The position numbers and the translations under genes were made by a program. A stretch of DNA of 64,000 bases from an uncultured Pseudomonadota bacterium. Its GTDB lineage: Bacteria > Pseudomonadota > Alphaproteobacteria > RF32 > CAG-239. Numbering within the stretch: position 1 is the first letter of the stretch; every line of letters starts with the position of its first letter. Under the pieces are notes generated by a model. It was not told where the DNA came from and did no database searches. It saw only the letters and a program-made list of their open reading frames with translations. This document shows, one piece after another, positions 15,958 through 61,613 of the stretch. The stretch is taken from positions 4,309-68,308 of the forward strand of contig CADAAN010000006.1 in assembly GCA_902785935.1 (NCBI GenBank), in the 5' to 3' direction.

Positions 15958-16074
15958 TTTCTTTTGATAAATAAACCCTCAAATTTTGAATGTCAAAGAA
16001 AAATCATCGTTTTTCAGATGTATTTTTAATTTTTTTGTTTGACTTTTATTTTAAAGTATGCCATAATCAAAAGC

Positions 16075-16236
16075 GTAACCAAAATGGTTATGGTGTTTAG
16101 ATAACACATTCGAGTTAAGGCTCCTTTGAAAGAGGAGTTGTTGATATAAGGCAATTTTTGCTCGAATAAGACAAACTGTAACTCGACAGTTATCTAGCTC
16201 CTCCATTTTGAGATTTTTCAAGATGGATTTTTTTTT
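16075..16236 (+). promoter_or_regulatory. type-1 conserved 5' leader (structured RNA with terminal attenuator hairpin) upstream of LRR gene
   Basis: Begins GTAACCAAAATGGTT 7 nt after promoter TTGACT-17-CATAAT (16039..16067); conserved boxes CTCCTT..AGGAG, GATATAAGG, TCGAATAAG, AGCTCCTCC; ends in hairpin ccattttg..caagatgg + T9. Confidence 0.7.
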
Positions 16237-16265: not shown

Positions 16266-17324
16266 ATGAAGAAATATGTTTGGGTTTTTGGACTTATTTT
16301 AAGTTATAATGCACAAGCTTATGATTATAATGATTGTTTTGGTGCAAGCGGATGTCAGCCCTGTCCGAATAGTACGGACGGCAAATGTTTTTATGCTGTT
16401 GAAGGCAGCAAAATGACAATTTATGGCCCGACATCAACCGAACAAAATGCAGATGGCAGCTTAAAAGAAACAACATCGATTCCGCGTTATGCCTTTACCA
16501 ACAGCGATAATGCCAGCAATTTGCCGGAAAATATCACTTCTCTTGAAATAACAGGTAATATCACAACCGTTGAAGGTTATGCTTTTTGCTCTGCCCCTCT
16601 GACAAATGTACAATTTCCTGAGACACTTGAAACAATATCGGAATTGGCTTTTTGGAACAATAATTTATCACAAATCAATTTTCCTAATTCGCTTAAAAAT
16701 ATAGAAGAAGGTGCTTTTAATTGGAATCCATTTTCAGAAATTAATTTACCCGACGGATTAATGACGCTGGAGGGGTTAACAGGTGTTCCCCTGGGGCATG
16801 TTGTTATTCCGGATTCGATTGCAGAGGTTAAAGATGCGATTTTTTCTTCAAACTATCGTTTGCAATCATTGGTTGTCGGCGCAGACACAATGCTTGGCAA
16901 TATTTTTACCTACACAACAGGGGCTGTTAGTGTGCAATTTGATAAATTCAAGATGTTTTGCGCAGAAAATAACGGCTCATGCACAACAGCTTTGCAAAGT
17001 GCCGGTGCAACACAAGAACAAATTGCGCAAATACTGATAAGTTATACAAAAGATGACGCAACAGGCGTTTATCAAACAAGTGACGGAAAATATTATGCCG
17101 ATGTCAATTTGATGGCAAGACAAATGGCTTGCGAAAATAAGCAAAGCTGTGAAATTGCCAGTGCTGATATTCGGGCAGGTCGTCCTTTTGATATGAAAGG
17201 AAAATCTTACGCATCTGTCGATGATTTCATTCAAGGAAAATATATTCCAAAGCGTATCTATACCATCGATGAAGCCAATCATGTCGCGGGCAAGACAAAC
17301 ACTTTTACGATTCGGTATCGATAG
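16266..17324 (+). CDS. secreted BspA-type leucine-rich-repeat protein with conserved C-terminal tail
   Basis: Signal peptide MKKYVWVFGLILSYNAQA; Cys-rich N-module; LRR_5-like repeats (ITSLEITGNITTVEGYAF...); C-terminus PKRIYTIDEANHVAGKTNTFTIRYR shared with 4 paralogs. Confidence 0.8.
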   Translation: MKKYVWVFGLILSYNAQAYDYNDCFGASGCQPCPNSTDGKCFYAVEGSKMTIYGPTSTEQNADGSLKETTSIPRYAFTNSDNASNLPENITSLEITGNITTVEGYAFCSAPLTNVQFPETLETISELAFWNNNLSQINFPNSLKNIEEGAFNWNPFSEINLPDGLMTLEGLTGVPLGHVVIPDSIAEVKDAIFSSNYRLQSLVVGADTMLGNIFTYTTGAVSVQFDKFKMFCAENNGSCTTALQSAGATQEQIAQILISYTKDDATGVYQTSDGKYYADVNLMARQMACENKQSCEIASADIRAGRPFDMKGKSYASVDDFIQGKYIPKRIYTIDEANHVAGKTNTFTIRYR

Positions 17325-20593: not shown

Positions 20594-21493
20594 TTATCTG
20601 TACCTGATTTTGACCGAATTGACTTTGCCTGCGATGGCATTTGCTTCATCGATGGTGTAGATACGCTTTGGGATATAATCTCCTTTTTGCATCGCGGAAA
20701 TTGAGGCATAAGTTTTCTCACCGATACGATATTTCCCGTCAGGTGTCTTAGAATAATGAATAATTTTCGGGTTTTTACCCGTTTGAAGCGCTATTCTTGA
20801 ACATACCTCTTCGGAAGCCGCACAATATAGTTTTTGAAGGTTTGTGTTTGTAAAAGCTTCATCATCAATATTTGTCACACTATTCGGAATAACAAGTGTT
20901 TCAAGTGTTGAAATATCAGCAAGAGACGTCCAACCGATTGAGGTTACACCTTCAGGGATTTCCAGATTTTTAAGTTTTGTTCCGACAAAAGCTCTATCAG
21001 GAATTTCTGTTTGAGCCTGCCCAAGCATCAAATAATCTATTTTTGTTGCCGCAAAACTCCAAGCACCGACATATTGAAGATTTAGAGGTGTATTAATTTC
21101 TTTTAATAAATCTGCACCCTGAAATGCAGCACCGCCAATTTGTTCAATAGAATCCGGCAAATCAATACTGCTGATTTTTGTATAAGCAAGTGTATAACTA
21201 CCGATATTGGTTAAAGAATCCGGCAATGAGACACTTCGAATAGTTTCAAGTTTTTCAACCCATGGTGTTCCCGGCCTTTGGTTTTTAGAATCCCATTCGT
21301 AATTTGTCATTTTTCCGACAGGTGCATTTTCATCTTTGGCTTCAATTGAAAAAAGACCTGTCTGCTCATTTAGTCTGGCAAGGCAATTAGCGCCGCAATC
21401 CCAACAATTGATGTTTAAATCATCACCGCAAGTATTGACTGCTTTAGCTTGAGAGCTCATTGTCAGTAAAAAAAATAAAATCCATTTTCTCAT
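20594..21493 (-). CDS. secreted BspA-type LRR protein with conserved C-terminal tail
   Basis: Signal peptide MRKWILFFLLTMSSQAKA; LRRs; C-terminus PKRIYTIDEANAIAGKVNSVKIRYR. Confidence 0.8.
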   Translation of the reverse strand: MRKWILFFLLTMSSQAKAVNTCGDDLNINCWDCGANCLARLNEQTGLFSIEAKDENAPVGKMTNYEWDSKNQRPGTPWVEKLETIRSVSLPDSLTNIGSYTLAYTKISSIDLPDSIEQIGGAAFQGADLLKEINTPLNLQYVGAWSFAATKIDYLMLGQAQTEIPDRAFVGTKLKNLEIPEGVTSIGWTSLADISTLETLVIPNSVTNIDDEAFTNTNLQKLYCAASEEVCSRIALQTGKNPKIIHYSKTPDGKYRIGEKTYASISAMQKGDYIPKRIYTIDEANAIAGKVNSVKIRYR

Positions 21494-21676
21494 ATTTTTT
21501 CTCCATTATGCAAAATAAAAAACCGTTTAAGATAAACCAAAAACGGAGGAGCTAAACGAACTGCACTAAATCAGTTAAGCTTATTCGAGGTATTAACCCT
21601 TATATCACTTACTCCTCTCTAAAGGAGTATATTTTTAGTGCAAGTGTCGTTTAAACACCGCAACCATTTTGGTTAC
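21494..21676 (-). promoter_or_regulatory. type-1 conserved 5' leader with terminator-like hairpin
   Basis: Minus-sense GTAACCAAAATGGTTGCGGTGTTTAAAC...GATATAAGG...CTCGAATAAG...AGCTCCTCCGTTTTTGGTT; promoter TTGACA-17-TTAAAT (21683..21711) puts TSS at the GTAACC; terminal hairpin ccgttt..aaacgg + T6. Confidence 0.7.
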
Positions 21677-21846
21677 GCTTTCATTTAAGCATATATCAAA
21701 ATACTTGTCAAGATGTTTTTAGCCTCTGTCACAATCGGCAACAAAATGTGCATTGATAATTGGGGCTAACGCGGCAATATCAGTTGATATATCTGAAAAT
21801 CATTTTATAATCAGCGTATGTTTTTGAACTTTGGAGAACTTTAAAT

Positions 21847-29406: not shown

Positions 29407-30540
29407 CTAACGATATCGAATCGAGAAGGTGTTTGTTTTGCCCGCCACCTGATTCGCCTCATCGACGGTATAAATGCGCTTGCCCTCATAGCCGATAATC
29501 TTGCCATCTTCATAAATGGCCGTACTTCCATCGGCTAATTTTTTAGAGTATTTAACTGCCATAATGTCAGCAAAGTCATTCGGGTCAAGCCCTGCCGCCT
29601 CAATATTTCTTTGGCACTTAGCGACAGATCCGGCACACTGTATTTCTATGTTGCTTATATCAAGGTTATCGAAAGGAGAATAAATTCTGTCATAACTAAA
29701 AAATACTTCACAGCTATCCATTTCATATGTACAGCCGGCTTCTAAAGCTTTACTATAAAGTTGTGTATAATCTTCTTCGCTCATATGGCTACGGTTATTT
29801 TCTACATTTTCTAAGCTGTAAAAATCATCTTCTATCACATATCTGCTGAATGCAAAATTAAAATCATCTGATACTGTGATTCTTTCAAGATTTTTAATAC
29901 CCTTAAAAGCACCTTCATCAATATACTCAACCGAATCTGGCAATGTAAGGCTTATCAAACCTGACATACCCATAAAAGCATCTCTCTCTATATTTGTAAC
30001 CGAATCCGGAATAGTAAGATTAGTAACGTTTCTCATATACGCAAATGCAGTATCTTCAATATTTTTCAGTGAATTTGGTAAAGTTAAATTTGTAACAGCA
30101 GTAACATCATAAAATGCACCGCTACCGATATCTTCCACCGCATTACCGATTGTTAAATTTGTTACGTTAATCATATTACTAAAAGCACGATCACCAATAG
30201 AAACCACAGAATCTGAAATTTCAATGGATGTAGCATTTGTAGCTTCTCTAAAAGCATTATTTCCAATTGTCGTTATACCTTTTTCTACAACAACAGAGGT
30301 GATATCTTCGCGAATAGCATGCCATGGCATACTGTAATGATACCAACCAGAATAATTCTTATTTTCAAAATCATCCATAGCACCAGTGCCGGAAATAGTC
30401 AAAATACCGCTATCCGTATCCAAGCTCCAATAGCAATTCTCGCCGCATTTTTTGTAGCCGCTGTTTGTACCAATAATATCTGCTTTGACGCCTGAGGATA
30501 ACAAAATAAATCCCATCATCAGAATACATTTATTTTTCAT
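29407..30540 (-). CDS. secreted BspA-type LRR protein with conserved C-terminal tail
   Basis: Signal peptide MKNKCILMMGFILLSSGVKA; ~8 LRR_5 repeats (VTNLTIGNAVEDIGSGAF...); C-terminus KRIYTVDEANQVAGKTNTFSIRYR. Confidence 0.85.
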   Translation of the reverse strand: MKNKCILMMGFILLSSGVKADIIGTNSGYKKCGENCYWSLDTDSGILTISGTGAMDDFENKNYSGWYHYSMPWHAIREDITSVVVEKGITTIGNNAFREATNATSIEISDSVVSIGDRAFSNMINVTNLTIGNAVEDIGSGAFYDVTAVTNLTLPNSLKNIEDTAFAYMRNVTNLTIPDSVTNIERDAFMGMSGLISLTLPDSVEYIDEGAFKGIKNLERITVSDDFNFAFSRYVIEDDFYSLENVENNRSHMSEEDYTQLYSKALEAGCTYEMDSCEVFFSYDRIYSPFDNLDISNIEIQCAGSVAKCQRNIEAAGLDPNDFADIMAVKYSKKLADGSTAIYEDGKIIGYEGKRIYTVDEANQVAGKTNTFSIRYR

Positions 30541-30828
30541 AATTTTTTCCCTTTTAAAGATGTTAATATAAAAAAGTTTAACCGCGCCTTTTTAAGTGCG
30601 GCGGGGAGTGAAGAAATCATGTAAACCTAAATGACTCTTGCAACCTTTAGAATAACTCTTGTACATCCTTTGCAAGCTCCCCAACCAAAACTTTGGGGAT
30701 AATCGGCATTTTATACAAAAACACCTTCAAAACAAACAGTGTTATCCGTCACTGAGGTTTACAAAAGCTTCTTCAAAGCTCCGCACCCAATACATAGGCA
30801 CTAAATGATAAGATTTCTCCCATCACTT
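30541..30828 (-). promoter_or_regulatory. type-2 conserved 5' leader (long structured RNA ending in attenuator hairpin)
   Basis: ~85% identical to 41674..41952 and 61231..61513; promoter TTGACA-17-TCTAAT (30836..30864); 3' end forms ccccgccgcac-ttaaaaa-ggcgcgg hairpin + T-rich run ~40 nt before ATG. Confidence 0.7.
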
Positions 30829-30946
30829 AAGATTTATTAGAACACGTTTTGATTTAATTGTCAAATAAAAAAGCAAAATTTTATGTACTTTTACTTTTTT
30901 TTGAAGTATAGTAATGCCAGTTGAGGAAATATTTGGAAAAAAATAA

Positions 30947-40815: not shown

Positions 40816-41673
40816 TTAGCGATACCGAATCGAAAAAGTGTTTGTCTTGCCTGCAACTTGATTGGCCTCATCGATGGTGTAAATGCGCTTTGGTGCGTAA
40901 TGTTGATTGTAAATATCATTTGGGGAACTGTAAAACCTTCCGTTATAATAATAACCTGTTGAGTATTTTTGATAAAATTTAATTTTATCGCCAATTTCTT
41001 CATCGTCTAAAAGAGCCTGACAACTGGCATTTGTGTCTTCGCAATAAATAGCCAAAGATTCTGACAATGCTTTATTTATGGAATTAGTAAGCATTTTTTT
41101 TGTAATCATGGTCGAACCGGATATGGTTAAAGATTTCAATTCCGTGCCGCCTAATGTCCAATCTTCATCTTCAAGAATAACATCTTTGGGTAATACAATA
41201 TCTTCAACTTTTGTACGATTAAAATTAGCCCCTCCGATAAAAGTCAGACTATTTGGTAAATTAATTTTTTCAAGTGATTGAGTATCATTAAAAGCACCAC
41301 CCGAAATCTTTTGAAGTCCTTCGGGTAAAACAGCCTCTCGCAAATCAAACAAATATTCAAAAGCAGAAGAACCAATTGATTTAAATATTTTATCACTTGA
41401 TTCGTTTTCGATAACGACTTTATAAATTTGTGAAGAATAGGCTCCCCAATCGGCTGTATTATGGCACCATGGGTCACAGCTGTGACTATAATTTTTCATA
41501 TCACCATAACCTTTAATGGTTAATGTATTCGTGTTTTTATCAAGTGTTGCTGTACAACTATCATTTGAGGTTGCCGCACAGTCAAATGTACAAATATCAC
41601 TGTTATCACAAAGTGTATCAGCATATGTATTAAAAGCCGTAAATATACAAAAAATATAAATTACTTTTCTCAT
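40816..41673 (-). CDS. secreted LRR-family protein with conserved C-terminal tail
   Basis: True start MRKVIYIFCIFTAFNTYA (signal peptide) at 41673 with GGAG RBS; track ORF extends spuriously into leader; C-terminus PKRIYTIDEANQVAGKTNTFSIRYR. Confidence 0.8.
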   Translation of the reverse strand: MRKVIYIFCIFTAFNTYADTLCDNSDICTFDCAATSNDSCTATLDKNTNTLTIKGYGDMKNYSHSCDPWCHNTADWGAYSSQIYKVVIENESSDKIFKSIGSSAFEYLFDLREAVLPEGLQKISGGAFNDTQSLEKINLPNSLTFIGGANFNRTKVEDIVLPKDVILEDEDWTLGGTELKSLTISGSTMITKKMLTNSINKALSESLAIYCEDTNASCQALLDDEEIGDKIKFYQKYSTGYYYNGRFYSSPNDIYNQHYAPKRIYTIDEANQVAGKTNTFSIRYR

Positions 41674-41952
41674 ATCTTTTCTCCAAAATTTATTAAACGA
41701 AAAAACCACTCTAAAATGAGCGGCGGGGAGTAAAAGAATCATGTAATGGAAAATGACTTCCGTAACCTTTAGGTCAAAACCTTGAACATACGCCACGGAC
41801 TCCCCAACCAAAATATCGGGGATAAGCATTGTTTTAAAATAAAAAAACAACACTAAAACAGCGTTATCTCTCACTGTCCATTACAAAAGCTCTTTTAAAG
41901 CCCCGCACCCTTTTCGGGTACTTGATAGAAAAAGCCAAAACCTTCCTATCTG
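41674..41952 (-). promoter_or_regulatory. type-2 conserved 5' leader with attenuator hairpin
   Basis: Promoter TTGACA-17-AATAAT (41959..41987); conserved blocks identical to other two copies; terminal hairpin ccgctc-atttta-gagtgg + T6. Confidence 0.7.
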
Positions 41953-42027
41953 ATTTATATTATTACATATCAAAAACATCTTGTCAAGAAATTTTAAAAT
42001 ATTTTAATACGTGATTTGGCTGTGAAC

Positions 42028-42214
42028 GTAAATAAAAGCTTAGAATGAGCTAGATGCGACGGAAGCTCTTTTACGAAGTGTACAAAAGAGGTTGTATACG
42101 TAAATAAAAGCTTAGAATGAGTCAAGTACGACGTACGGCCGCTTGCGCAGTGTACAAAAAGGGTACATAAGCAAGCGGCCGCACAAGTAATTGGCCATTA
42201 TAAGCTTTTATTTT
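42028..42214. repeat. repeat region: two ~66-75-bp direct repeats plus inverted terminal 15-mer; contains strong GC-rich hairpin
   Basis: cgtaaataaaagcttagaatgag at 42028 and 42094; inverse copy ataagcttttatttta at 42199; 12-bp perfect stem gcggccgcttgc/gcaagcggccgc. Confidence 0.5.
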
Positions 42215-45086: not shown

Positions 45087-45986
45087 TTATCGATACCTTA
45101 TTTTGAAAGAATTAACCTTGCCCGCGACGGCATTCGCCTCGTCGATGGTATAAATGCGGATATCGGCACGAGCAGGAACAGATGGCAAGACAGATGGAGA
45201 AACAGTTCCTGATGCTGAAGCAATTTTTGCTCTGCAAGAAGTCTCCGTTTCGCAACCCTCTTCCGTTCCTCCCAACATCATTTTTGCTGCTGAAGAGTAA
45301 TAATTATCACCAACTTTATATACCCCATCTTCTTTAGTATATTGTTCAATTTTTGACGTCCCATGGCCTTTACAAATATTAACATCTTCGCAAAAAAGTT
45401 TTGTGTTGCTGGCAAACGGAAAGTTAACAATTGTTGTTCCTCTGCTAATAATGACATTGTTCAAGGATTCATTTTGAAAGCTACTTCCAAAAGCATCCTG
45501 ATTAATTTTCGTTACACCGCTTAAATCAATATCATGCAGGTTGGTTGTATATGTAAAAGCGCCACTTCCAATTTCTTTAACTCCTGTAAAATCCACACTC
45601 GACAAAGCAGATCGCGAAAAAGCGGTTCCGCCGATTGATGTAACACCGCTTGCAAAAGCAAGTGAGGTTACACCTTGAGGAAGCATTGATGTCCCATAAG
45701 TGTCATCTGCAAAAGCTGATCTCGGTACTTTGTATGTGAGATTGCCGTTTGAATCTGTTGAAGTAATTGATGACCCCTGAATGGTCATTTTTCCGTTATC
45801 AATAGTGTAGTATGTGAGCATATGAGAGGCATAGCTACTGGCTTGCGACAAACATCCTTCGCCATAAGTTGAAACACAAGCCTGACAAAATGTGTTCCCT
45901 TCAGGGCACTCAATTAAAGCAATGGAAATTTTTGAAAATGAAACTGTTGCTACTAATGCCGAGGTTAAAAAAATATTTCTAGTCAT
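45087..45986 (-). CDS. secreted surface protein, member of the conserved-C-tail family
   Basis: Signal peptide MTRNIFLTSALVATVSFS; Cys-rich N-module, degenerate LRR-like repeats; C-terminus RIYTIDEANAVAGKVNSFKIRYR. Confidence 0.75.
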   Translation of the reverse strand: MTRNIFLTSALVATVSFSKISIALIECPEGNTFCQACVSTYGEGCLSQASSYASHMLTYYTIDNGKMTIQGSSITSTDSNGNLTYKVPRSAFADDTYGTSMLPQGVTSLAFASGVTSIGGTAFSRSALSSVDFTGVKEIGSGAFTYTTNLHDIDLSGVTKINQDAFGSSFQNESLNNVIISRGTTIVNFPFASNTKLFCEDVNICKGHGTSKIEQYTKEDGVYKVGDNYYSSAAKMMLGGTEEGCETETSCRAKIASASGTVSPSVLPSVPARADIRIYTIDEANAVAGKVNSFKIRYR

Positions 45987-46177
45987 AACTTTTCTCCTAT
46001 TTTTCTTATTTACACTGTTGAAAAAATCACTTCAGAAGATATCCGAAGTGGGAGCTAGAAAACTGTATACATTCAGTCAGACTTATTCGACATTTCAAAA
46101 CGCTTATATCATCTACTCCCGGTAAAAGGAGCGATATGTATAAGGTGTTTTCTAGACACCGCAACCATTTTGGTTAC
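45987..46177 (-). promoter_or_regulatory. type-1 conserved 5' leader with terminator-like hairpin
   Basis: Minus-sense GTAACCAAAATGGTTGCGGTGTCTAGAAAACAC...GATATAAGC...TCGAATAAG...AGCTCC; promoter TTGACA-17-GAAAAT at 46184..46212; terminal hairpin cacttcgga..tgaagtg + T6. Confidence 0.65.
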
Positions 46178-46353
46178 TTTTTTATTTTCACATAAAAAAC
46201 GTAGCTTGTCAAATAAATTTTGTAAAAAATATCTTTTTTTGCTTGAAAAATAAAACTTTAATGATAAATTGTGCTTGAAATTTAAATTAACCCCCGTGCG
46301 GGGAATCCGCACAGCTCTTTTCTTAAGAGTTTACTTTTTTATAAGGATACTAA

Positions 46354-52252: not shown

Positions 52253-52843
52253 TTAGTAGTCCCCTCTGATTACATGATAAAACCGACAGCTATCTAAACT
52301 TGTTTCACATGCCTGACAGCCCTCAATGATATCAGACATTTTGACCTCCGTAATACCTCCTGTAGGCCAATATATATCCTTACCGCCCACCTCTATCAAT
52401 CCGCCTGTCCACCATTCAACCGGGACGGCATTTTCCCATCCTGCAGAGGCAAAAGCAATACACGATTTTGAATCGGTGAAATGGATAACAAATTCACCCT
52501 GAACATATGAACCACCGCTATCATAAAAATCCATATTCAGCGTTCCTATCGGAAGTTTGCAAGCCTCGTCTCCATTAAGATCCGTTGTTACTTGACAATC
52601 CGGTAAAAGCCCGTATTGAATTAAATCTTCGGCATCACGAATCTCAATACCTTCTCCCCAGCCTTTTTGCTCCAACTCCATAAAGCGTTGAAGAATTTGA
52701 TTATATGTGTCAATTGTTTGATTCATTTTGTATTTAAACATTGCGGCAGAATAACCTTTGAGTGCGCCCGCCGACAACACACCGACAATAGCCAACACGC
52801 CCAGCATTTCAACCATACTTCTACCTATTTCATTAATTTTCAT
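52253..52843 (-). CDS. type IV pilin-like protein (prepilin N-terminus, Arg at +1)
   Basis: MKINEIG|RSMVEMLGVLAIVGVLSAGAL: short basic leader, Gly-1, Glu+5, hydrophobic alpha1 helix. Confidence 0.65.
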   Translation of the reverse strand: MKINEIGRSMVEMLGVLAIVGVLSAGALKGYSAAMFKYKMNQTIDTYNQILQRFMELEQKGWGEGIEIRDAEDLIQYGLLPDCQVTTDLNGDEACKLPIGTLNMDFYDSGGSYVQGEFVIHFTDSKSCIAFASAGWENAVPVEWWTGGLIEVGGKDIYWPTGGITEVKMSDIIEGCQACETSLDSCRFYHVIRGDY

Positions 52844-53036
52844 TGGTTATACCTTTCTTTCATAAAAAAAATTCCGTTTTATATAACCAAAAACGGAGGA
52901 GCTAACTAACTGCCATTGTACAGCTTGCTTTATTCGCGCATCACTAAAATACCTTATATCAGCAACTCCTCATCAAGGAGCTATACAATGGATGTGTTAG
53001 TTAAACACCGCAACCATTTTGGTTACATCCTGATTA
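52844..53036 (-). promoter_or_regulatory. type-1 conserved 5' leader with terminator-like hairpin
   Basis: Minus-sense GTAACCAAAATGGTTGCGGTGTTTAACTAACAC...CTCCTTGATGAGGAG...GATATAAGG...GCGAATAAAG...AGCTCCTCCGTTTTTGGTT; promoter TTGACT-17-AATAAT at 53043..53071; terminal hairpin ccgttt..aaacgg + T8. Confidence 0.7.
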
Positions 53037-53253
53037 TTTCATACAAAAGCATAAAAGTCAAATACTTTTTTGTACATACAAAAAAAATAAATTTTTTTTG
53101 TAACAAAGTACTTGCAAAATTAAAAAAAATGTATATCATATAAAAAAGTGATGCAGATGTTTTTGATTTTGTCTGCACTTTGTTTCTCATTTTAACGAAG
53201 ATTTTTTTAGTATTAACAAAAGCTGCAAGGCTTTGCTTTTAGGTGTTTAAGGT

Positions 53254-59994: not shown

Positions 59995-60609
59995 TTAGTA
60001 GAATTTCCAAGAAACCGTTGCTTGTTCGGTGCATGTAGCTACAGCACCTGTACCCGAAGCTCCGCCCATCGGATAAGGTTTACCCTCATCAGCACCTAGT
60101 ACTTTACCTTTGGCATAATTTGTACCGGTAGAAGCTTCAATTTCTACACCGATAAAACCCGAACCGGCACCCGAACCAAAATCAGCCGTTGCAAGTGCAA
60201 TGCAAGCCTCCTTAGGTAATCCTTTGTAACTGATTACAAAGGCTGTTGGTTTTGCATCACCAGTAATTGCTGTATTGACAGCAGAAATTGTATTTGAAGT
60301 AGCCATAGCTTCTAAAATTTGAACACTTCCTTTAAATGGGTTTGTTAAAGCGGCAGGAGATGTACCCATTACAGGCGGAACAATTCCTAAACTGACAGCT
60401 TGTGTCGCCAAGCCGGCGTAGTTACCCTGCTGTCCATACATTGTTCGGATGTTTGTCACAAGCATTGTGATTTGTTCCATTGTCGTGTTGAGTTTGTGTT
60501 TGAACATCGCTTTTGAATAGCCTGCCAAACCGCCGGCTGACAAAACACCGATAATCGCCAAAACACCAAGCATTTCAACCATTGAACGACCATTTTGATT
60601 ATTCTTCAT
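59995..60609 (-). CDS. type IV pilin-like protein
   Basis: MKNNQNG|RSMVEMLGVLAIIGVLSAGGLAGYSKAMF; second gene of a two-pilin operon. Confidence 0.65.
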   Translation of the reverse strand: MKNNQNGRSMVEMLGVLAIIGVLSAGGLAGYSKAMFKHKLNTTMEQITMLVTNIRTMYGQQGNYAGLATQAVSLGIVPPVMGTSPAALTNPFKGSVQILEAMATSNTISAVNTAITGDAKPTAFVISYKGLPKEACIALATADFGSGAGSGFIGVEIEASTGTNYAKGKVLGADEGKPYPMGGASGTGAVATCTEQATVSWKFY

Positions 60610-60648
60610 TTTTTTATTCCTTTATTAAACTGTTAAAAACTTATATGA

Positions 60649-61230
60649 TTAATAGAACTTCCAAATGATTGTGTTTTTTGCACCTGCACAATCACTAACT
60701 GCATCAGCCATTTCATACGCTTTTCCCTCAGCACGTTTGTTTGCAATGCCTGTACCAATGACTATAGAAGATCCATCTGCTGAGGCTGCTGCAGTACCTG
60801 TTTTATCGGCTATAACACCTACAAAACCTGAACCTGCGCCTGAACCAAAGTCAGACGTTGCCAAAGCAATACAAGCTTCTGTTGGTAAACCATCAAAAGC
60901 GACTGTAAATGATTCATTGTTTGTACCTGTAGCAACAATATTAACATTACCCTTAAATGGGTTTGTAAGTGTGGCTCCACTACCCATAACAGCCGGAACA
61001 ACACCAAGACTTGATGCTTCTGTATTTGTTAATCCCGCATAATTTCCCTGTGTGCCGTACATTGTACGGATATTCGTCACAAGCATTGTGATTTGATCCA
61101 TGGTGGTATTGAGTTTGTGCTTGAACATGGCCTTTGAATAACCTGCCAAACCGCCGGCTGACAAAACACCGATGATGGCAAGTACGCCAAGCATTTCGAC
61201 CATACTACGGCCGTTTTCGTTATTTTTCAT
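60649..61230 (-). CDS. type IV pilin-like protein
   Basis: MKNNENG|RSMVEMLGVLAIIGVLSAGGLAGYSKAMF; N-terminal 60 aa nearly identical to 59995..60609. Confidence 0.65.
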   Translation of the reverse strand: MKNNENGRSMVEMLGVLAIIGVLSAGGLAGYSKAMFKHKLNTTMDQITMLVTNIRTMYGTQGNYAGLTNTEASSLGVVPAVMGSGATLTNPFKGNVNIVATGTNNESFTVAFDGLPTEACIALATSDFGSGAGSGFVGVIADKTGTAAASADGSSIVIGTGIANKRAEGKAYEMADAVSDCAGAKNTIIWKFY

Positions 61231-61513
61231 TTTTCAATTCCTTTTAAAAATTATTACGTAAAACCGCCCCTAAAAGAGCGGTCGGAGAGTTAAACAATCA
61301 TGGATTAGAAAATGACTCCGACAACCTTTAGATTAAAAATCCTGAACATTCGCTACCGGCTCCCCGACACTTTTCGGGGATAATGTGCTATATTTAAAAT
61401 AAAAAATAACACCACATCAATACAGTGTTATCCTCACTGTCTAATCCAAGAGTTGTTTAAAACTCCGCGCCCGTCTCAGGCACTTGATAGAAAAAGTCAC
61501 CTCTTTCTATCCG
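61231..61513 (-). promoter_or_regulatory. type-2 conserved 5' leader with attenuator hairpin
   Basis: Promoter TTGACA-17-TTAAAT (61520..61548) puts TSS at the leader 5' end; terminal hairpin ccgctc-ttttag-gggcgg + T-run ~35 nt before ATG. Confidence 0.7.
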
Positions 61514-61613
61514 ACCATTATTTAACAACACAAATGCTTAATTGTCAATTAAAAAAAACTATAACTTTAGTCATAGTTTTGCATTTGAACAATGTCTTCA
61601 TCAAATGCAGGCT

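Follow-up and report, generated by a model that had tools for sequence, protein, structure and literature searches.

Why should genes for BspA-type leucine-rich repeat (LRR) proteins and for type IVb pilins begin with the same upstream sequence? The question is raised by a 64,000-nt stretch of a contig (CADAAN010000006.1) from an uncultured bacterium, here called the window, in which a profile search (nhmmer) located three homologous leaders on the minus strand, at 30571-30826, 41688-41957, and 61248-61518 (copies A, B, and C, respectively). An earlier note, made from the sequence alone, had reported three minus-strand copies at these places; a covariance model found exactly the same three (30554-30837, 41678-41960, and 61236-61521; 208 to 248 bits), with the next best hit in the window at 12.6 bits, and neither method detected a further copy there. 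Sequence reading and a three-way alignment indicate that each leader is ~280 nt long, lies downstream of a TTGACA box, and closes with a GC-rich hairpin shortly upstream of an ATG. The copies are less alike than the 80 to 85% identity first estimated, the family alignment giving 58 to 69% for pairs among the three. In this report, we argue that the leader is probably a cis-acting structured 5′ RNA of ~270 nt which controls the adhesin or pilin gene downstream by riboswitch-like transcription attenuation. The earlier note had likewise seen in the element the architecture of a riboswitch or protein-dependent attenuator that could not be matched to a known class, and this is supported by the absence of a matching Rfam family, by covariation, and by the evidence for a terminator and an antiterminator.

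A conserved fold backed by covariation

RNAalifold, applied to 3, then 7, and then 43 sequences, converged on a single nested fold. In the last alignment (A4, comprising 43 full-length leaders), the fold contains 53 pairs, and 96.7% of pairs are kept while the primary sequence is only ~63% identical across the family. Thirty-seven of the 53 pairs show changes on both sides, amounting to 392 doubly changed cells; shuffled alignments gave 100 ± 12 such cells, and none of 500 shuffles reached the observed number, by which chance is excluded. When the 3′ partners were slid by 1 to 3 columns, pairing fell to 38 to 47%, and an unsupervised scan for mutual information returned as its top pairs exactly those of helices P2, P1a, and P6. 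G·U pairs are far more frequent than A·C combinations (242 versus 29), so the fold belongs to the sense-strand RNA and not to the DNA or the antisense strand. The compensatory changes quoted in the earlier note also proved to be real, CCCCAA/TTGGGG versus CCCCGA/TCGGGG being helix P5 and ACCC..GGGT versus GCC..GGC being hairpin P0b. The leader has, in short, a conserved structured domain backed by covariation, as riboswitches generally do.

These observations bear directly on the idea that the copies are co-duplicated 5′ flanks, or stretches of recombination homology for surface-protein cassettes, which have no function as RNA (or which, in a variant of the idea, encode a leader peptide). Recombination does occur within or beside the leader, in that strain variants of the nusG locus (see below) keep the leader and differ in the terminator 3′ arm and the LRR gene. 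However, the compensatory double changes in 37 of 53 pairs, the strand-specific bias, and the retention of pairing at such low sequence identity all argue against inert flanks. Similarly, no conserved reading frame was found in the leaders; as had been claimed at the outset, the short open reading frames (ORFs) differ in frame and length between copies (the longest ones also in sequence). The apparent ATG is in fact the conserved UGAUU of the P1a 3′ strand, and AUG, GUG, CUG, and UUG variants of it occur among the relatives. A leader-peptide attenuator was rejected on the same ground, there being no conserved short ORF. Covariation, strand bias, and the absent frame together effectively refute both forms of this explanation.

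The fold comprises a 5′ hairpin (P0), a small hairpin (P0b), a closing helix (P1/P1a/P2), and a five-way junction of P3 to P6 closed by P2. The core spans ~200 nt, with a closing helix of ~18 bp and ~50 near-invariant positions, among them the junction strands and loops GGAUAAC, UUAUCCCCGA, GAAUGUUCA, CUAAAGG, AGUCAUUU, and UGAUU. In copy C, the 5′-terminal hairpin P0 lies at 61486-61511 and the small hairpin P0b at 61467-61483, next to the 5′ strand of Px/P1 at 61448-61466 (Px being a local hairpin that is described below). In the closing helix, P1 pairs GGAG with CUCC (3′ strand, s4, 61282-61289), P1a has 7 bp (3′ strand, 61291-61301), and P2 has 7 bp (61441-61447 with 61302-61308). P3 (61422-61440) carries the invariant loop GGAUAAC, the P4 region (61383-61421) is a variable U-rich hairpin, P5 (61360-61382) contains CCCCGA/UCGGGG, and P6 (61318-61359) contains the conserved internal loops GAAUGUUCA and CUAAAGG. 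J6/2 (61309-61317), which reads AGUCAUUUU, holds the invariant joining strand AGUCAUUU, and the terminator hairpin at 61262-61283 is followed by UUUU.

One further covariation lies outside this nested fold. Columns 194 (after the P5 3′ strand) and 271 (before the P1 3′ strand) are A-U in 28 leaders, U-A in 6, G-U in 5, U-G in 2, and mismatched in 2, and one relative (L052) has a compensating change at the position next to this pair. The flanks would extend it to an 8-bp helix, UCGGGGNG with CNCYCCGA, which is 97.3% paired and is incompatible with P5 plus P1. The pair represents either a third conformer, with an alternative helix between the P5 3′ and P1 3′ strands, or a long-range tertiary contact. 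Two other candidates were set aside. A pseudoknot between the P3 loop GGAUAA and UUAUCC is complementary, but both sides are invariant, partly by ascertainment, and the comparison is uninformative (z = −0.2); and on inspection of the alignment, the sequence variation of the internal loops fits neither a K-turn nor a T-loop.

Predicted competition between terminator and antiterminator

We examined competing pairings with an own-versus-swapped test, in which the pairing of a segment with its own partner is compared with its pairing with the partner taken from another family member; two negative controls gave z scores of −1.7 and −0.4. On this measure, both the P0b hairpin (z = −5.6) and the terminator (z = −7.0) prefer their own partners, as does the P0b 3′ strand with the terminator 5′ arm (z = −4.4). 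Px (GGAGCU...AGCUY), a local hairpin in competition with P1 for the strand GGAG, scored −5.4, and P1 itself scored −3.9; no signal was seen when the 5′ strands of P1 and P5 were tested against each other (s1:s2; z = −0.1), and that pairing was discarded. Furthermore, P0b and the terminator hairpin of the same leader are complementary over their entire lengths (z = −6.4), and this extends to the two loops (z = −3.6). The loop-loop complementarity adds evidence because complementary stems would not automatically produce it. In L001, L007, and L050, the minimum-energy fold is indeed a long P0b-terminator duplex stacked on P1.

Folding of successively longer prefixes gave a consistent order of events across the 43 leaders. 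At the start, all 43 formed P0b and 39 formed Px. With the P1 3′ strand present, P1 and P1a replaced Px in 35, and when the 5′ arm of the terminator alone had emerged, the antiterminator formed in 31. In full-length folds, the terminator won in 30 leaders and the antiterminator in 13. The two structures are nearly isoenergetic, and the outcome must therefore be decided kinetically, a decision that a bound effector could bias. The folding models thus describe an explicit switch of three putative parts, namely, an anti-antiterminator (P0b), an antiterminator (P0b 3′ strand plus terminator 5′ arm), and a terminator. The same models predict that terminator and antiterminator are mutually exclusive and overlap the closing helix, which is a second general property of riboswitches.

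We propose that each leader would constitute its own transcription unit, consisting of a sigma-70-type promoter, P0, P0b, the core, and an intrinsic terminator. An effector would bind the five-way junction and, presumably, determine whether P1/P1a close before the polymerase has reached the terminator. With P1/P1a closed, the P0b strand would be held beside the emerging terminator 5′ arm; the P0b and terminator hairpins would merge into one long duplex stacked on P1, this antiterminator would win, and read-through would follow (ON). With P1/P1a not closed, Px and P0b would persist, the terminator would form, and a leader transcript of ~270 nt would be released (OFF).

Alternatively, the leader may be a constitutive module of the 5′ untranslated region, a stabilizer of the mRNA or an aid to processing or translation for highly expressed secreted proteins, in which the terminal hairpin is a fixed partial attenuator or stabilizer. 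A 5′-terminal hairpin is a classic mRNA stabilizer, P0 starts a few nucleotides past the predicted transcription start, and some of the U-tracts are weak. Nevertheless, a constitutive module leaves unexplained both the invariant five-way-junction core and the mutually exclusive pairings (Px versus P1, and P0b versus antiterminator versus terminator) seen in the own-versus-swapped tests, and we consider it very improbable.

Promoters and terminators of the three copies

Copy A has a predicted promoter at 30836-30864 on the minus strand (TTGACA at 30864-30859, a 17-nt spacer, and TG-n-TCTAAT at 30841-30836), and its transcription is predicted to start near 30829. Its leader RNA (30571-30830, minus strand; nhmmer E = 5e-51; covariance model, 207.8 bits) can be divided, by mapping alignment columns to coordinates, into P0 (30804-30827), P0b (30783-30801), and an aptamer-like core (30603-30782); the terminator hairpin (30581-30602) is followed by UUAAACUUUUUU. 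In copy B, the minus-strand promoter at 41959-41987 (TTGACA, a 17-nt spacer, and AATAAT with an upstream TG) has 11 of 12 matches in the promoter scan. The same mapping divides its leader RNA (41688-41957, minus strand; E = 6.6e-61; 239.7 bits) into P0 (41924-41950), P0b (41905-41921), and the core (41725-41904), and the terminator GCCGCTCATTTTAGAGTGGT at 41705-41724, matched by the terminator scan at 41724-41705, is followed by TTTTTT. Copy C has its putative promoter at 61520-61548 on the minus strand (TTGACA at 61548-61543, a spacer of 17 or 18 nt, and TG-t-TAAATA) and its leader RNA at 61248-61518 (minus strand; E = 4e-65; 247.5 bits).

The earlier note credited every copy with a canonical promoter and with a GC-rich hairpin plus U-tract, and each of these claims holds in part. 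All three copies have an exact TTGACA as their −35 box, but each −10 box is an extended −10 element with imperfections (TGtTCTAAT, TGtAATAAT, and TGtTAAATA), and a strict sigma-70 scan is passed by copy B only; copy A fails because position 2 of its −10 box is C, and copy C gave no match in that scan. Likewise, the terminal hairpins of all three are GC rich (−9 to −13 kcal/mol), but the U-tract is canonical in copy B only, being UUUU in copy C and the interrupted UUAAACUUUUUU in copy A, and copy B alone passes the strict terminator scan in the window. Because the strict scans support copy B only, the promoters and terminators of copies A and C rest on family-wide conservation. The distance from terminator to start codon is 30 to 40 nt.

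Relatives in rumen genomes and metagenomes

We recovered 46 further leaders, 4 of them at loci in rumen metagenome-assembled genomes (MAGs) and 42 in rumen metagenomes. The first scan, with an exact pattern based on a 3′-half motif against one genome per species, gave the 4 true relatives along with 5 chance hits; the relatives are in three rumen MAGs recorded as Alphaproteobacteria or proteobacterium (RGIG5118, RUG11221, and UBA3773). The second scan, of metagenomes with an independent 5′-half motif, returned 46 loci, of which 42 are true relatives and 4 are chance hits, and the contig series of these 42 suggest rumen-type samples. Nothing similar was found in plasmid and phage collections (blastn) or in viral contigs (pattern scan). 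Consistent with a rumen habitat, rumen assemblies (STEW19 and PRJEB21624) encode a NusG identical to the one adjoining copy B, and it follows that the window comes from a rumen bacterium. The sequence of this contig is also present in ENA assemblies ERZ28613383 and ERZ27280375.

The signals are largely conserved across the family. A TTGACA-like −35 box stands at the same relative position in 44 of 49 members, and every one of the 43 full-length leaders ends in a terminal hairpin (−5.7 to −14 kcal/mol), with at least 5 U's within the next 8 nt in 36 of them, so that the family as a whole has the GC-rich hairpin directly followed by a U-tract that defines an intrinsic terminator. The U-tracts of the pilin-associated leaders are weak, copy C having UUUUACG and L017 and L031 almost none. 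L020 and L053 do not have the 5′ hairpin P0, and a TTGACA box sits in its place; transcription in these two should start directly at P0b, and P0 would thus be dispensable for the core.

A promoter and a terminator of its own for each copy are also what one would expect of a free-standing small RNA gene of ~270 nt, present in multiple copies and acting in trans or as a ribonucleoprotein, with read-through into the downstream gene being incidental. In several loci, moreover, the next ORF is 100 to 300 nt away, with repeat elements in between. On the other hand, nearly every locus has the leader in a fixed orientation and at a fixed position with respect to a gene of one of two families, the terminator is usually 30 to 40 nt from the start codon, without a separate promoter, and a covariation-supported antiterminator has no role in a constitutive small RNA. 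In addition, copies within one genome have diverged to 58 to 69% identity yet keep their pairs, which fits cis elements evolving with their genes. A free-standing small RNA is accordingly improbable, and we return to the cis-acting attenuator as the preferred reading.

The nusG locus also provides a view of strain variation. L058 and L059, variants of the same nusG-downstream locus in other rumen assemblies, keep the leader of 41690-41960 almost base for base through the terminator 5′ arm. They differ in the P5 loop, in the terminator 3′ arm (to which the same 5′ arm is still complementary), and in having ~190 nt of extra spacer, and they carry a different LRR paralogue (MKKWILILG...). These sequence differences suggest an exchange of cassettes via recombination at the leader end. 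In the window, the segment between nusG and the copy B promoter contains a tandem repeat of 72 nt at 42018-42161 (2 copies with 75% identity), and three or more units are apparent in the spacers of L058 and L059. Several loci (L043, L045, L049, and L052, downstream of the leader, and L007, L026, L055, and L058) have GC-rich short palindromic repeats, such as GAATCCTCCCCCTTGAGGG... and GTCATCCCGAACTTGTTTCGGGATCT, inserted after the terminator and ahead of the next ORF. These inserts look like REP-like or miniature mobile elements.

Downstream genes and genomic surroundings

All the genes downstream of the three copies lie on the minus strand. Copy A is followed by a gene (29407-30540) for a secreted BspA-type LRR protein of 377 amino acids (Pfam LRR_5, E = 2.4e-50) and copy B by a gene (40816-41673) for a BspA-type LRR protein of 285 amino acids (LRR_5, E = 7.5e-14). 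Copy C is followed by two tandem type IVb pilin genes (59995-61230; Pfam PilS, Bundlin, and N_methyl), which occupy 60649-61230 (193 amino acids) and 59995-60609 (204 amino acids) and are paralogous (repeat D3). Pfam thus agrees with the original assignment of two LRR proteins and two pilins. In the relatives, the first ORF past the leader encodes either the N terminus of a type IV pilin or a signal peptide that carries the motif CG.NC...LTISG.G.M. Among 41 related loci, Pfam identified LRR_5 in the downstream ORFs of 26 and PilS/bundlin in those of at least 7, and several more are truncated pilins. These counts support the earlier suggestion that LRR proteins and pilins belong to one regulon.

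The neighboring genes in the window (Mla, Lpt, isoleucyl-tRNA synthetase, trigger factor, and secE-nusG) are ordinary Gram-negative chromosomal genes, and hence the leaders are dispersed and not part of one island. No candidate regulator gene linked to any copy was found in the window. The 3′ ends of four LRR genes (29408-29481, 40817-40890, 45088-45161, and 20595-20668) share ~74 nt at 62 to 85% identity; judging from sequence, this stretch is probably a common C-terminal module of the LRR proteins, regardless of leader type. Elsewhere, at 7542-9552 (minus strand), a tyrosine integrase (8395-9552) adjoins an AbiEi-type antitoxin regulator (7542-8303) and a helix-turn-helix/pentapeptide protein (6214-7152). 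These genes may mark the border of an integrated element, unrelated to the leaders.

A second type of leader in the window

A different leader of ~200 nt, which we call type 1 (the leader described above being type 2), occurs at 46016-46215, 52864-53065, and 21514-21714 on the minus strand and at 16037-16233 on the plus strand, as well as in a relative's contig (L002:107-267, minus strand). It has its own TTGACA promoter and terminal terminator and precedes paralogues of the same gene families. Three of the genes downstream of it encode LRR_5 proteins (45087-45986, 20594-21493, and 16266-17324), and a fourth ORF (52253-52843) has no Pfam match and shares a 135-nt repeat (family D2) with the two pilin genes. 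RNAalifold on the five copies yielded 49 pairs, 20 of them with compensatory changes, and type 1 had no match in Rfam at the gathering score. Kinship between the two types was rejected. A type 2 profile, run with filters off at E ≤ 10, matched its own three copies only, the other hits being noise, with E values above 0.2 and at unrelated positions. The adhesin and pilin paralogues are therefore divided between two different attenuator leaders, both of them structured.

Discussion

Is the type 2 leader a member of a known family? The earlier note had named an Rfam scan as a check on its reading, and no family matches the leader even at E ≤ 10. In a scan of the whole window against Rfam 15 (4,227 models) at the gathering score, only two tRNAs were detected, and permissive scans (copy A at E ≤ 10; 12 related loci at E ≤ 5) gave only scattered hits at noise level, and no family recurred at the leader. 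In a literature search, we found no description of such a motif upstream of the BspA/LRR or pilin genes of rumen bacteria, and the text of the report on 224 candidate motifs does not mention pilin, LRR, or BspA (PMC5737381). We therefore class the leader as a new RNA family, absent from Rfam, that works by a known principle.

The nearest functional precedent, by analogy, would be the cyclic di-GMP (c-di-GMP) riboswitches that precede adhesin genes and type IV pilus operons. In Clostridioides difficile, c-di-GMP-II elements precede a gene for a collagen-binding protein and the pilin operon CD3513-03 (PMC11477304), and in Bacillus thuringiensis, a c-di-GMP riboswitch precedes cbpA (PMC7423583). 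Like the leaders described here, these are cis-acting 5′ leaders that control surface adhesins or type IV pilins at the RNA level, often via a terminator. However, the core here is roughly twice as large (~200 nt) and the host is a rumen bacterium labeled Alphaproteobacteria. The leader itself was rejected as a c-di-GMP-I or c-di-GMP-II riboswitch, as neither model matched at E ≤ 10 and the consensus fold is a five-way junction.

Other systems share parts of the architecture. T-box leaders are also long (200 to 300 nt) multihelix 5′ leaders with a competing terminator and antiterminator at the end, and in them, too, the decision depends on a distal domain that captures the effector. The antiterminator here, in contrast, is a hairpin-to-hairpin duplex, and the genes are those for adhesins and pilins rather than amino acid genes. 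A T-box leader was rejected; there is no Rfam match, specifier loop, conserved T-box sequence, or antiterminator bulge, and between P1 and the antiterminator there is only a variable bulge of 0 to 3 nt. The trp-type attenuators have the same 1:2, 2:3, 3:4 logic of anti-antiterminator, antiterminator, and terminator. The present leader differs from them in having no leader peptide and in the insertion of a ~200-nt structured domain between segments 2 and 3, the closure of which brings these two segments together. Finally, orphan riboswitch candidates and ornate RNAs (raiA, and ROOL from rumen data) likewise came to light only through covariation, in sequence from uncultured organisms or metagenomes, and have complex multijunction folds with many invariant unpaired nucleotides (PMC5737381). 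Unlike these, the leader has a promoter and a terminator of its own and precedes fixed classes of genes, which makes it clearly cis-regulatory, and it matches none of those Rfam families.

What, then, does the junction bind? One answer retains the whole architecture and has a dedicated RNA-binding protein, or an RNA such as a tRNA or small RNA, bind the junction and set read-through. The controlled genes encode surface proteins and not metabolite enzymes or transporters, the many invariant single-stranded nucleotides could make up a protein-binding surface, and the presence of an unrelated second structured leader before paralogues in the same genome makes two regulators easy to picture. Known protein-dependent attenuators (the RAT, ANTAR, TRAP, and PyrR sites), though, are short and simple, unlike this five-way-junction core of ~200 nt, and such a core, with ~50 near-invariant positions, is what one more typically finds in RNAs that form a binding pocket themselves. 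Moreover, no copy has a linked candidate regulator gene, and neither a T-box-type specifier nor a conserved antiterminator bulge was seen. We regard a protein or RNA effector as unlikely, albeit worth serious consideration. A small molecule or second messenger is somewhat more likely than a protein, in view of how large the RNA is, how complex its junction is, and how many unpaired positions are invariant. Carrying this further, we tentatively suggest a new riboswitch class, in which the ~200-nt five-way junction is an aptamer that directly senses a small molecule or second messenger and governs the repertoire of BspA-type adhesins and type IVb pilins, and which together with the type 1 leader may form an RNA-based choice of surface proteins.

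Several points weigh against attenuation of this kind or against particular parts of it. Transcription starts, termination, and read-through are predictions from sequence. The permutation and shuffle statistics ignore kinship between the sequences, and collection by exact patterns rendered P3 and the 5′ half of P5 invariant by ascertainment and limited the diversity sampled. The pair 194:271 is left unexplained by a simple two-state model. In view of the weak U-tracts of the pilin-associated leaders, termination there may be inefficient. Finally, the downstream genes give no clue to a metabolic ligand, and in this respect the data fit a protein or RNA effector as well as they fit a small molecule.

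If our reading is correct, the leader adds to the known cis-regulatory RNAs a large, complex, and previously undescribed class with unusually clean covariation. The class would control proteins of attachment to a host or partner rather than metabolism; to our knowledge, genes for attachment proteins are rarely under riboswitch control outside the cyclic-dinucleotide classes. It would also offer a direct way into the regulation of dozens of paralogous adhesins in an uncultured rumen lineage, with three promoters, three terminators, and a defined RNA as the starting material. The ligand, if there is one, would point to a signal relevant to colonization of the rumen.
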